Sequence record: OR780565.1
Origin: Escherichia phage DCP2
Reading direction: 5' to 3' (one strand)
Length of the DNA: 64,000 nt
In this document: in pieces, positions 3,546-64,000 of the stretch
How positions within the stretch are numbered: the stretch's first letter is position 1
Layout: every line of letters starts with the position of its first letter
The notes under the pieces: model-generated
The model's input: the letters and a program-made list of their open reading frames with translations, nothing else
What the model was told of the DNA's origin: nothing
Database searches by the model: none
Program-made: the position numbers and the translations under genes

Positions 3546-4639
3546 TAAAAAGTCCCCGCATATAAAGAAGCACGGTTTAACGTGATAATTTCTCTCATAG
3601 TAATCTCAAGAGTAAATGTACTAGGGAGGTTTGGAGCAATAGCTAATCCGTTAAAGTTACCATTAGGCGTTTTATCAAATCTGATGCTTTGTATTTGGCA
3701 TGGGCCAAATATTTCCGTTTTTCCATCAAACTTAGATGTTGCACCAAAGTTTTTCACCATCCAAATTGTCGGGTTTGAAACTACTAGAACGTTAGTTAAA
3801 CTCGATGTCATTTTCTCAAATAGTGTTTTATTTTTAGCTGCGTCTTCCGGAGATAAAGGTTCAATTAACGTAGAACGATACCAATCATCTAAATACCCCT
3901 TTATTTCAGCAGCATATTGAGATTTGCCCGTTTCACCATAAGAAAAATAGTTAAAATATTGATAGATATTAATAATAGCCATTAAATCTTCTGTGGAACG
4001 TGGAGTCAAATCCCATGTAAACACTTTAGTTCTATTCTCAGCACCACCATACATACTTCTGGCTGTCGTATAAATCTGTTCATTATTGTCAGCCATTATA
4101 CCTTGTGTTATACTTTCCAGTGCCCCAAATACTGCAGTTGAAGCAATATTACTTAGCACACCAGTAGCAGTACCTCCGCCTCTGCTGATAAGACTTTCTT
4201 GAACATCATTAAATCTATGTGATGATGTATCAACATCAGATTTAGATCTTGGTAAAAGAATATTTGCAACAGGGGCTTTACTTATTGTTCCTGAATTATT
4301 ATCTGATATTAATCCATTTGACAGTTTTGATACTGTATTACTGATAGTGTTTCTGGCTGTACGTAAAATACTCGAAGATGAAGAAGAGTAGTTAGATCTC
4401 ATCGATCTAAGACTTCCAGAATCCCTAGATGACATATTGTATGCAGTAAATAATAATCCATTCTTATATAGATCTGTTACCTGGAAGTCCCCTGTAGTGC
4501 CATTACCACTAGCACGCCCAGTTGGAAACTGGGCAGTGTATGTTTTAGTTGCTACTTCTGATTTAGTACTCTGTCCGGCTGAAATTTTCTCACCGGACTT
4601 TTTAATTAAATCAGCAGTTATTTCTTTAACAATTGCCAT
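3545..4639 (-). CDS. 48: gp48 baseplate tail-tube junction protein
   Basis: 364 aa, same as T4 gp48; synteny. Confidence 0.85.
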   Translation of the reverse strand: MAIVKEITADLIKKSGEKISAGQSTKSEVATKTYTAQFPTGRASGNGTTGDFQVTDLYKNGLLFTAYNMSSRDSGSLRSMRSNYSSSSSSILRTARNTISNTVSKLSNGLISDNNSGTISKAPVANILLPRSKSDVDTSSHRFNDVQESLISRGGGTATGVLSNIASTAVFGALESITQGIMADNNEQIYTTARSMYGGAENRTKVFTWDLTPRSTEDLMAIINIYQYFNYFSYGETGKSQYAAEIKGYLDDWYRSTLIEPLSPEDAAKNKTLFEKMTSSLTNVLVVSNPTIWMVKNFGATSKFDGKTEIFGPCQIQSIRFDKTPNGNFNGLAIAPNLPSTFTLEITMREIITLNRASLYAGTF

Positions 4640-51049: not shown

Positions 51050-51734
<685 letters not shown>

Positions 51735-59594: not shown

Positions 59595-60031
59595 AAACAT
59601 TATCAGCTGGTATTATCTTTATGACAGAAGATAAAGATTTATTTATGGGACGAGTTACCGGTTCTCGTAAACCTGGAATGATTGCACATCGCTGGGATAT
59701 TCCAAAGGGGCGTGTAGAAAGTTCTGATTTGAATGCACTGGAAGCTGCAAAAAGAGAATGCTCAGAAGAGACTGGTTTTATCGATTATAATCCAGACCTT
59801 CTAGAAGACTTAGGTGTATTTAAATATTCTAGTAATAAAGACTTACAGTTATTTTATTATACGATTCCAGTAGAGCATGAGATGTTTAGAAATTGCCATT
59901 GCGAGTCTTATTTTGAAAATAAAGATGGCGTTATGATTCCAGAGATGGATGCTTTTGCTCTTATTCCTCGTACTCAGTGGCAATATGTGATGGGTCCTTC
60001 ACTTTACCGAATAATGAACAGCCTCTTTTAA
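59576..60031 (+). CDS. nudE: NudE Nudix hydrolase
   Basis: 151 aa from the ATG at 59576 (alternative ATG at 59591 gives an ATGA overlap); Nudix box GRVESSDLNALEAAKRECSEETG; directly upstream of e as in T4. Confidence 0.8.
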   Translation: MQEIKMKTLSAGIIFMTEDKDLFMGRVTGSRKPGMIAHRWDIPKGRVESSDLNALEAAKRECSEETGFIDYNPDLLEDLGVFKYSSNKDLQLFYYTIPVEHEMFRNCHCESYFENKDGVMIPEMDAFALIPRTQWQYVMGPSLYRIMNSLF

Positions 60032-60834
<803 letters not shown>

Positions 60835-60835
60835 T

Positions 60836-60865
60836 GTTTACTTCCTCCAAGGACTTTGATACTAT
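60836..60865 (+). promoter_or_regulatory. early promoter with embedded stem-loop upstream of denV
   Basis: gtttac-N18-tactat; inverted repeat cctccaa (60844-60850) / ttggagg (60881-60887) pairs the promoter region with the denV Shine-Dalgarno. Confidence 0.5.
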
Positions 60866-60892
60866 ACATTCATCAACTACTTGGAGGAAATT

Positions 60893-61309
60893 ATGACTCG
60901 TATCAATTTAACACTTGTTTCTGAACTGACCGATCAACATCTTATGGCTGAGTATCGTGAATTGCCACGTGTTTTTGGTATAGTTCGTAAGCATGTGGCA
61001 AACGGTAAGCGCGCTAAAGATTTTAAAATATCTTCTAAATTTATTTTAGGTTCTGGTCATGTTACTTTCTTTTACGATAAGTTAGAATTTTTGCGAAAGC
61101 GTCAATCGGACATTATAACGGAATGCTTAAAACGCGGGTTCAGTATAAAAGATACTGAAGTTCCTGACATCAGCGATATTCCAGTAGAATGGAAAAATGA
61201 TTATAATCCATGCAAATCAGCTATTAAGTTGAGTCAACAACGACTCGATGAAAAAATTTTAATGAAGCCACACTGGTATAAGTATTACGGCAAAAATATT
61301 TACATTTAA
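60893..61309 (+). CDS. denV: endonuclease V, pyrimidine-dimer DNA glycosylase
   Basis: Start set at [12 protein letters not shown], giving 138 aa as in T4 DenV; GGAGG RBS. Confidence 0.9.
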
Positions 61310-61454
61310 ATAACATGGGAATAACCTGGACCTCATGATTCTATGAGGGATTCCCGCCAACCTGTAATAAGGTCGAGCCCAAGTGCGGTAATGGGTAAAT
61401 ACAGAAATGGACAATTCATGCGCCATGGAATGGCCCAAATTTAGAGAGAATAAA

Positions 61455-61994
61455 ATGAGAACATTTTTAACTGGTCCTTATCTATCCCTGATGAATGCTT
61501 TTACACACCATTCTGATGCTAGAGTAGAAGAAATTTGTAAAAACGAATATATCCCACCATTTGAAGACTTACTTAAGCAGTATTGCACACTTCGACTAGA
61601 CGGTGGACGTCAATCCGGTAAATCAACTGCTGTGACTAACTTTGCTGCTAATTGGCTGTATGACGGTGGAACAGTTATTGTTCTTTCTAATACTTCAGCT
61701 TACGCTAAAATTTCTGCAGGCCACATTAAAAAAGAATTTTCTCGTTATTCTAGTGATGATATTCGATTCCGCTTATTTACTGATTCTGTCCGTAGTTTTA
61801 TCGGTAATAAAGGAAGCAAGTTCAGAGGTTTATCTCTTTCGCGAATTTTGTATATAATCGATGAGCCTGTTAAATCTCCTGATATGGATAAAATTTACGA
61901 TATTCATATTGAAACTGTGCAACACTGCTGTAATAGTAAATGCTGCATTGGCGGTATTACTCGTCCGCAGTTTTTCGTAATTGGAATGCAATGA
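61455..61994 (+). CDS. small P-loop NTPase
   Basis: Walker A GGRQSGKST and Walker B-like ILYIIDE; start at MRTFLTG (alternative ATG at 61425). Confidence 0.55.
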   Translation: MRTFLTGPYLSLMNAFTHHSDARVEEICKNEYIPPFEDLLKQYCTLRLDGGRQSGKSTAVTNFAANWLYDGGTVIVLSNTSAYAKISAGHIKKEFSRYSSDDIRFRLFTDSVRSFIGNKGSKFRGLSLSRILYIIDEPVKSPDMDKIYDIHIETVQHCCNSKCCIGGITRPQFFVIGMQ

Positions 61995-62320
61995 TGACAG
62001 ATACGCAACTTTTCGAATATCTTTATTTTTCGCCAAAAACTATTAAAAATAAATTGGTGAATCATTTTGAAATTTTGGCAAATAACAACGTCTTGAGCGA
62101 ATTTTATCCCAAGCAATACAAATTACAAAAAGGTGTATTCAAAGGATGCAGAGTTTTGTGCACTGCTCCTAATGCAAGATTAATGAATAAAATTCCATAT
62201 TTTACCATGGAATTTATTGATGGACCATTTAAAGGATTAATTACTCAAAGTTTAATGGCATATGATTCTGAGCCATTTTTAATTAAAGAACAGTCTTGGA
62301 TAAATTTATTTTCTAATTGA
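61991..62320 (+). CDS. hypothetical protein translationally coupled to the P-loop ORF
   Basis: ATGA overlap with the upstream stop; 109 aa. Confidence 0.5.
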   Translation: MMTDTQLFEYLYFSPKTIKNKLVNHFEILANNNVLSEFYPKQYKLQKGVFKGCRVLCTAPNARLMNKIPYFTMEFIDGPFKGLITQSLMAYDSEPFLIKEQSWINLFSN

Positions 62321-62326
62321 GGTTAT

Positions 62327-62689
62327 ATGAAAGCATATCAAATTCTTGAAGGCACGCATAAAGGTACTATTTATTTTGAAGATGGTATTCAAGCACGAAT
62401 TATTGTCTCTAAAACCTTTAAAGAGGACTCTTTTGTAGACCCGGAAATTTTTTACGGTTTGCATGCCCGCGAAATTGAAATTGAAACACAACCTACAGTT
62501 AAAATTGAAGGTGGTCAGCACCTGAACGTTAACGTTCTGCGTCGCGAAACTCTGGAAGATGCAGTTAAGCATCCGGAAAAATATCCGCAGCTGACCATCC
62601 GTGTATCCGGTTATGCAGTTCGCTTTAACTCTCTGACTCCGGAACAGCAGCGCGACGTTATCGCTCGTACCTTTACTGAGAGCTTGTAA
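62327..62689 (+). CDS. GrcA/YfiD-like autonomous glycyl radical cofactor
   Basis: C-terminal 60 aa ([59 protein letters not shown]) matches the E. coli GrcA / pyruvate formate-lyase glycyl-radical domain, including the RVSGYA glycine; T4 Y06I is a known homolog. Confidence 0.85.
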
Positions 62690-62910
62690 TGGCAAAGATA
62701 ATTATTGAAGGTTCTGAAGATGTGCTAAATGCTTTCGCCGAATGGTTTAGTAATTCAGGCGAACAGCAATTTAATGAAGCATGGAACATGGGTGATATTA
62801 ATGGAATTTATCCTACGACAGAAATTTCTGTTCAGGGATATGGCATTCATGAACCTATTCGTTTAGTTGAATATGATTTGGGAACAGGTGAGGAAGTAAA
62901 ATATGATTGA
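62689..62910 (+). CDS. hypothetical small protein (vs-region)
   Basis: 73-aa ORF; ATG overlaps the GrcA-like stop. Confidence 0.5.
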   Translation: MAKIIIEGSEDVLNAFAEWFSNSGEQQFNEAWNMGDINGIYPTTEISVQGYGIHEPIRLVEYDLGTGEEVKYD

Positions 62911-63169
62911 AGACATTAAAGGTTATAAGCCACATACTGAAGAGAAAATCGGTAAAGTGAATGCTATCAAAGACGCTGAAGTTCGTTTAGGACTTATCTT
63001 TGATGCTTTATACGATGAATTCTGGGAAGCACTAGATAATTGTGAAGACTGTGAATTCGCAAAGAATTATTCCGAAAGTCTCGATCAGTTAACTATTGCT
63101 AAAACGAAGCTTAAAGAAGCCAGTATGTGGGCTTGTCGTGCTGTGTTCCAACCAGAGGAAAAATATTAA
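62903..63169 (+). CDS. hypothetical small protein; candidate Vs.4/Acb2-like cyclic-nucleotide sponge
   Basis: 88-aa ORF with GAGGAAG RBS; the Acb2 suggestion is positional (counting back from regB), not from recognised motifs. Confidence 0.5.
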
Positions 63170-63447
63170 TGGCTCAATTAAGCGCAGGGTTTGGTTATGA
63201 GTATTATACTGCCCCTCGTCGTGTATCTGTCGCTCCTAAGAAAATTCAAAGTCTTGATGACTTCCAAGAAGTAGTCCGTAAAGCTTTCCAGGACTACGCA
63301 CGTTATCTTAAAGAAGATTCACAGGACTGTCTCGAAGAAGATGAAATTGCTTACTATGAGCAGCGTCTTGAACAGCTTAAAAACCTACATGAGGTTCGTG
63401 CAGAAGTTACAAAGTCTATGAATAAATTGATTAGATTTAAAGAATAA
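63169..63447 (+). CDS. hypothetical small protein (vs-region)
   Basis: Start at the [11 protein letters not shown] (TAATG overlap); 92 aa. Confidence 0.5.
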
Positions 63448-63450
63448 CTG

Positions 63451-63480
63451 TTTACTTTTCCTCTTGACTGTGGTATAATT
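63451..63480 (+). promoter_or_regulatory. early promoter (GTTTAC-N18-TATAAT) with embedded stem-loop upstream of regB
   Basis: gtttac at 63451-63456 and tataat at 63475-63480; inverted repeat cctcttgactg / cagttaagagg brackets the -10 and abuts the GAGGAG RBS. Confidence 0.6.
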
Positions 63481-63506
63481 TTTCTATCAGTTAAGAGGAG
63501 AATAAC

Positions 63507-63968
63507 ATGACTATCAACACAGAAGTTTTTATCCGTCGAAATAAGCTTCGTCGTCACTTTGAGTCGGAGTTTCGTCAAATTAACAATGAGATTCGTGAGG
63601 CATCAAAAGCAGCAGGGGTCTCATCGTTTCATCTAAAATATTCTCAGCATCTTCTTGATCGTGCAATTCAACGGGAGATTGATGAGACATATGTTTTTGA
63701 ATTATTCCATAAAATAAAAGACCATGTTTTAGAAGTTAATGAATTCCTGAGTATGCCTCCGCGTCCTGACATTGACGAGGATTTTATTGATGGGGTTGAA
63801 TATCGTCCTGGGCGTTTAGAAATCACCGATGGAAATCTTTGGCTTGGATTTACAGTTTGTAAACCTAATGCGAAGTTCAAAGACCCGTCACTTCAGTGCA
63901 GGATGGCAATTATCAATAGTCGTCGTTTACCAGGAAAGGCTTCTAAAGCAGTAATTAAAACTCAATGA
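63507..63968 (+). CDS. regB: RegB site-specific endoribonuclease
   Basis: 153 aa, same as T4 RegB; strong early promoter and GAGGAG RBS. Confidence 0.8.
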   Translation: MTINTEVFIRRNKLRRHFESEFRQINNEIREASKAAGVSSFHLKYSQHLLDRAIQREIDETYVFELFHKIKDHVLEVNEFLSMPPRPDIDEDFIDGVEYRPGRLEITDGNLWLGFTVCKPNAKFKDPSLQCRMAIINSRRLPGKASKAVIKTQ

Positions 63969-63975
63969 GGTAAGC

Positions 63976-64000
63976 ATGAGAAAAGCACTACTCGCTGGTC
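63976..64000 (+). CDS. 5' end of next gene (partial)
   Basis: ATG at 63976 reading MRKALLAG... runs off the window end. Confidence 0.35.

Follow-up and report, generated by a model that had tools for sequence, protein, structure and literature searches.

The window analyzed here is a 64,000-nt stretch of Escherichia phage DCP2 (OR780565.1), a T4-like (Tequatrovirus) genome, and our follow-up concerned the interval 62689-63447 on its + strand. An ORF list with translations confirmed three ORFs there, of 73, 88, and 92 aa (Table 1). The vs.6 stop codon overlaps the vs.5 start codon as TAATG, vs.5 and vs.4 share 8 nt (ATGATTGA), and the vs.4 stop again overlaps the vs.3 start as TAATG, junctions from which we conclude that vs.6-vs.5-vs.4-vs.3 are translationally coupled. 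In the mechanical ORF list the third ORF is a 106-aa reading that opens at a GTG farther upstream (63127). Translation from the ATG at 63169 instead yields the 92-aa vs.3 product, in agreement with how T4 is annotated and with the residue at which PDB chain 9WIW begins (MAQ...).

Table 1. Features between vs.6 and regB in the window, with residues identical to the T4 protein.
Feature	Coordinates	Strand	Identical to T4	Description
vs.6	62327..62689	+	118/120	GrcA-like autonomous glycyl-radical cofactor, 120 aa; Pfam Gly_radical, 2.2e-18; upstream flank
vs.5	62689..62910	+		73-aa acidic protein (pI 4.05); translationally coupled to vs.4
vs.4 / acb2	62903..63169	+	87/88	88-aa predicted cyclic-dinucleotide sponge (anti-CBASS protein 2); matches to 7UQ2, PF24729, and PHROG 717
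vs.3 / tadIV-1	63169..63447	+	89/92	92-aa predicted N7-cADPR sponge (anti-type IV Thoeris), long form; matches to T4 Vs.3 and 9WIW
Early-type promoter before regB	63451..63479	+		TTTACT, 17 nt, TATAAT, TG extension
regB	63507..63968	+	152/153	Site-specific endoribonuclease; Pfam REGB_T4, 1.4e-68; downstream flank

It is in our view almost certain that this interval is best explained as a coupled vs.5-vs.4-vs.3 block in which vs.4 is Acb2, vs.3 is TadIV-1, and vs.5 is a conserved partner gene. The explanation is based on the sequence identity, family membership, conserved residues, and synteny established in this analysis, and the oligomeric states, ligand binding, and phenotypes we ascribe to Vs.4 and Vs.3 would carry over from published proteins that are 97-99% identical to them. 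The three genes would form a segment of the T4-like early-gene block, read from a single translationally coupled message running on from vs.6.

Conservation of the cluster is far beyond chance. Matches to the 1.2-kb stretch were found in 810 phage records and covered 80% or more of it in 490 of these. Nearly all of the records belong to Tequatrovirus and its relatives, the best match being Salmonella phage pSe_SNUABM_01 (98.5%). The annotated genomes of T4 and PP01 have vs.8, vs.7, vs.6, vs.5, vs.4, vs.3, and regB in the same order and orientation as the window. A core of vs.8-vs.7-vs.5-vs.4-regB is kept across four genera, and the order around that core varies: vs.6, the GrcA gene, precedes vs.5 in the T4-like phages, lies between vs.5 and vs.4 in Klebsiella phage KP179, and is absent in Edwardsiella phage PEi26 and Serratia phage X20. 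Similarly, vs.3 is absent in KP179 and X20, and PEi26 has it in the short form, which belongs to a class described as inactive. The sequence-only reading had described the three ORFs as tightly coupled, had set them between a GrcA-like gene and regB, and had taken the interval to hold vs.3 to vs.5; the coordinates, the overlaps, the Pfam matches of the two flanking genes, and the gene order of T4 and PP01 bear out that description.

The region upstream (window 60538-61994, + strand) is mosaic relative to T4. The window denV product is identical to that of T4 at 106 of 138 residues (77%), the Vs.8 ORF as called starts later than its T4 counterpart (195 vs. 219 aa), and a 98-aa ORF is found between the lysozyme gene (e) and denV, where T4 annotates ipIII and ipII.

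The promoter between vs.3 and regB scored 10/12 in a promoter scan and has a TG preceding its -10 hexamer. The window, T4, and PP01 have the same sequence for this early promoter, and the Shine-Dalgarno region is also base-for-base as in T4. A general sigma-70 scan returned 12 promoter-like sites vs. 13.8 expected in shuffled sequence, that is, no excess, and the regB promoter alone was accepted, on the strength of its identity to T4. An Rfam search of 60000-64000 gave no match. The spacer between denV and vs.8 seemed structured by eye and was rejected as a candidate, being ordinary conserved T4-like sequence.

The first of the three ORFs differs from its counterpart in the T4 reference genome, where Vs.5 is annotated as a 58-aa protein that has only its first 17 residues in common with the 73-aa ORF. 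The T4 gene occupies 4382-4558 of the extracted NC_000866 locus, equivalent to 62689-62910 of the window, and alignment of the DNA revealed a one-base deletion in the T4 reference after codon 17. When the T4 frame is shifted (+1), it continues with the conserved Vs.5 sequence and matches the 73-aa ORF of the window. X04567, AF158101, and NC_000866 are the only records with the deletion; 11 others of the hit list, nine of them named T4 or T4T and the remaining two the near-identical RB55 and RB59, have the intact frame and span 322 nt, not 321. The PP01 vs.5 annotation (138 nt) copies the wrong frame. This pattern suggests that T4 vs.5 contains an old sequencing error, since carried over into other annotations, PP01's among them. 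We regard the 73-aa ORF, not the 58-aa product of the T4 reference, as the true Vs.5, an identity that the sequence-only reading had missed. The wrong-frame T4 annotation may be part of the reason that Vs.5 has been overlooked.

By tblastn, Vs.5 was detected in 988 phage records (full-length in 986) at identities down to about 41%, and the protein matches PHROG 1986 (function unassigned) across the whole 76-position profile. No sequence match was obtained in Pfam, NCBIfam, or the PDB. Some homologs have C-terminal extensions (100-163 aa in BFVD). A 28-sequence alignment showed F16, W19, G24, E25, Q26, E30, G50, V60, E61, and E69 to be invariant, and from the same alignment AF2 produced a model with a pLDDT of 88.2, in which one long helix is packed on a small sheet; a first model, from 11 sequences, was discarded (pLDDT 55.8). 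The model of Vs.5 has no fold relative in the PDB, and neither by sequence nor by fold does the protein resemble the solved sponges (Acb2, Tad1, Tad2, Acb4, Sequestin, Lockin, and TadIV-1).

Might Vs.5 be a third immune-evasion factor, or an accessory or partner of Acb2, making vs.5-vs.4-vs.3 a compact three-gene anti-signaling island? We consider this doubtful, although several observations speak for it. Vs.5 is about as widespread across the Tevenvirinae as Vs.4 (988 vs. 1236 phage records), its gene is located between known anti-defense genes, and in no fewer than three genera (Tequatrovirus, Kanagawavirus, and Winklervirus) the vs.5 stop codon and the vs.4 start codon overlap. The protein is also small and acidic, and a small alpha/beta fold without known relative is confidently predicted for it. 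However, the case is one of guilt by association only, and the association is not constant, as in Jiaodavirus KP179 vs.6 intervenes between vs.4 and a longer vs.5 (114 aa). When the T4 "Part I" genes were tested singly, impairment of type IV Thoeris was reported for vs.3 alone (PMC13243611), although vs.5 possibly lies outside Part I. Furthermore, T4 without vs.4 is CBASS-sensitive (PMC10097602) although resequenced T4 strains keep an intact vs.5. A conserved partner gene of the block is the description of vs.5 that we prefer. Our best guess at its role, made with low confidence, is a further early accessory or anti-defense protein, perhaps with a tie to Acb2.

The 88-aa ORF at 62903 had been proposed, by position, as Vs.4/Acb2, and its alignment with the T4 protein upholds that choice. 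In a comparison with the crystallized T4 Vs.4 (PDB 7UQ2), 87 of 88 residues were identical (E = 4.7e-57), the sole difference being A57S, and a weak full-length alignment was also found with the Acb2 of PaMx33 (8H2J/8IXZ, E about 0.05). The ORF matches all 58 positions (1-58) of the Pfam profile PF24729, Acb2_Tad1_hairpin, at 71.3 bits (7.6e-20; the gathering score is 27 bits), and it matches PHROG 717 (5.1e-32), the family by which Jenson et al. defined Vs.4 homologs (PMC10097602). NCBIfam has no model for Vs.5, Vs.4, or Vs.3, and hence gave no curated equivalog call. Window Vs.4 is identical to the T4 protein at all of the residues that contact the cyclic dinucleotide (Y8, H11, K23, R79, and F82, together with S74), at all of those of the hexamer interface (L29, F33, A66, A73, and A77), and at T12 and L60. 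The contacts Y8, H11, K23, R79, and F82 are also kept in homologs from Edwardsiella, Klebsiella, and Serratia phages. By these measures we identify the 88-aa ORF as Vs.4/Acb2, an already characterized T4 protein.

The published work on T4 Vs.4 indicates what the window protein would do. T4 Vs.4 has a Kd of about 30 nM for 3',3'-cGAMP, takes up three cGAMP per hexamer, and blocks the activation of CapV; the bases are stacked on Y8 and F82, H11, K23, and R79 provide polar contacts, hexamer formation requires L29, A66, A73, and A77, and T12I, S74N, and A77I each inactivate the protein (PMC10097602). The T4 protein also sequesters 2',3'-c-di-AMP, and thereby triggers the Panoptes system OptSE (PMC12657218). 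As window Vs.4 is near-identical (99%) to this protein, we infer that it too forms a hexamer, binds its ligands at nanomolar concentrations, and blocks CBASS. Six copies would assemble into an interlocked hexamer that traps one cyclic dinucleotide at each of three dimer interfaces, its bases stacked on Y8 and F82 and its polar contacts made by H11, K23, and R79. The ligands would be 3',3'-cGAMP, bound at tens of nM, along with 2',3'-c-di-AMP and other dinucleotides used by CBASS. By denying CapV and other CBASS effectors their signal, Vs.4 would allow the infected cell to survive until the phage cycle is complete, and it would at the same time expose the phage to Panoptes, a decoy-nucleotide system. 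Natural T-even alleles can be defective, as in T2, where a mutation in Acb2 probably disrupts the binding site (PMC12657218); window Vs.4 has no such T2-like change.

The ligand spectrum of window Vs.4 is most likely that of the T4 type, which is limited to dinucleotides and does not include cyclic trinucleotides. This is expected because the window protein resembles T4 Acb2 in having D61 and T68, at positions where trinucleotide binders of the PaMx33/JBD67 type have an Arg and a Thr, together with a kinked pocket helix. T4 Acb2 itself binds dinucleotides and not cA3 (PMC10312549).

Against this background we considered whether the 88-aa ORF, while belonging to the Acb2 family, has through A57S acquired a changed specificity or weakened binding, for example by an opening of the trinucleotide pocket or an avoidance of decoys. 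Codon 57 is TCC in the window vs. GCT in T4 and PP01, a difference of two bases, and the exact Ser57 protein was found in a single record of the phage collection, that of Shigella phage sb1 (PQ666539.1). A57 is among the residues (with Y37, L60, D61, and T64) that line the closed trinucleotide pocket of T4 Acb2 (Cao et al., PMC10312549), and selection tuning the specificity of Acb2 has been proposed in the Panoptes study (PMC12657218). We nonetheless judge such a change to be very improbable. The replacement of Ala by Ser is conservative, and the slightly larger side chain would not open the pocket; even the D61R mutant of T4 Acb2 was without cA3 binding, owing to its differing helix geometry (PMC10312549). 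Position 57 is also within the most variable segment of the functional homologs, and the residues of the dinucleotide site are all intact. A57S could conceivably bring about a small shift in specificity, and we continue to treat window Vs.4 as a dinucleotide sponge of the T4 type.

We identify the 92-aa ORF as a second known sponge, Vs.3/TadIV-1, which the sequence-only reading had missed. Its product is identical to T4 Vs.3 at 89 of 92 residues, the substitutions relative to T4 being K38N, E64T, and T81S, and a PDB sequence search aligned it from residue 1 with 9WIW, the TadIV-1 of UPEC07 (E = 5.9e-38). The Pfam match of Vs.3 to Tex_N was below threshold (19.2 bits; cut-off 32) and was superseded by the identification as TadIV-1. 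T4 Vs.3 is a dimeric N7-cADPR sponge with a KD of about 216 nM (Chen et al. 2026, PMC13243611) and is necessary and sufficient for the evasion of type IV Thoeris by T4 (PMC13243611). Its pocket is formed by a flexible N-terminal loop, mutation showed R17, R18, and K24 to matter, and only the long forms of TadIV-1 (about 90 aa) are active, the short forms (about 70 aa) being inactive (PMC13243611). Window Vs.3 is of the long form (92 aa), possesses the N-terminal loop, and retains R17, R18, and K24. From its 97% identity to the T4 protein, we expect that it would form a dimer in which the flexible loop, with these three residues, sequesters N7-cADPR, and that this capture would block the caspase-like effector of type IV Thoeris.

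The range of TadIV-1 bears on which of the three ORFs handles cyclic dinucleotides. TadIV-1 was not seen to bind the type I Thoeris signal or that of the Yersinia CBASS in vitro, and it failed to suppress a second CBASS in vivo; the authors conclude that it is specific for N7-cADPR or has a narrow signal range (PMC13243611). On these grounds we conclude that Vs.3 is not the cGAMP sponge. That the cyclic-dinucleotide sponge is the 73-aa or the 92-aa ORF instead of the 88-aa ORF has practically no chance of being correct, for although Vs.5, Vs.4, and Vs.3 are all small, acidic, early phage proteins, as is typical for sponges, and in vivo TadIV-1 brought a slight recovery of plating on one CBASS strain, that with the Yersinia system (PMC13243611), neither Vs.5 nor Vs.3 matches Acb2/Vs.4 by sequence, TadIV-1 shows the in vitro result just described, the Vs.5 model is unlike any solved sponge, and the loss of vs.4 alone renders T4 CBASS-sensitive (PMC10097602).

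With vs.4 as acb2 and vs.3 as tadIV-1, two sponges for different immune signals would be encoded side by side, the stop codon of one gene overlapping the start codon of the next. Elsewhere in the window (51276-51731, + strand), gene 57B codes for Acb1, a cyclic-oligonucleotide phosphodiesterase that does not differ from its T4 counterpart (100% identity over 152 aa). The window thus has at least three anti-signaling genes, acb1 (57B), acb2 (vs.4), and tadIV-1 (vs.3), and from their presence we would expect the phage to evade many CBASS systems and type IV Thoeris, yet to be vulnerable to Panoptes. The content of the cluster is not new, Acb2 having been described by 2023 and TadIV-1 by 2026, and although acb2 was correctly located in a T4-like genome from position alone, nothing is added to what is known of Acb2. 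The analysis does illustrate how far annotation is behind the literature: most records, the closest matches included, label these genes "hypothetical protein", as do almost all of the phage records listed for vs.3, and 9WIW was deposited under the name "Endoribonuclease". It also draws attention to vs.5 as a well-conserved neighbor that is mis-annotated in the T4 reference genome.

Among characterized systems, the nearest to window Vs.4 is T4 Vs.4 (7UQ2; Jenson et al. 2023, PMC10097602), which has the same length of 88 aa, the same contact and hexamer residues, the same flanking genes (vs.5 and vs.3), and the same TAATG junction with vs.3. The window protein differs from it by A57S, which is away from the dinucleotide site. 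The Acb2 of PaMx33 (8H2J, 8H2X, 8IXZ; Huiting et al. 2023; PMC10312549) is more distant, its identity to T4 Acb2 being about 24% (Cao et al., PMC10312549), but it belongs to the same Pfam family and aligns with window Vs.4 end to end, and its Y11 and K26 are the equivalents of Y8 and K23, both conserved in the window. The two would also share the mechanism of a hexameric dinucleotide sponge, which for Vs.4 is transferred by sequence. PaMx33 Acb2 binds cyclic trinucleotides as well, via a second pocket (R67 and T74), in contrast to the T4 type with its D61, T68, and unkinked helix. For window Vs.3, the likeness to T4 TadIV-1 extends from the long form, the N-terminal loop, and R17, R18, and K24 to the site directly downstream of vs.4, whereas the TadIV-1 of UPEC07 (9WIW) is distinguished by a 9-residue insertion in its N-terminal loop.
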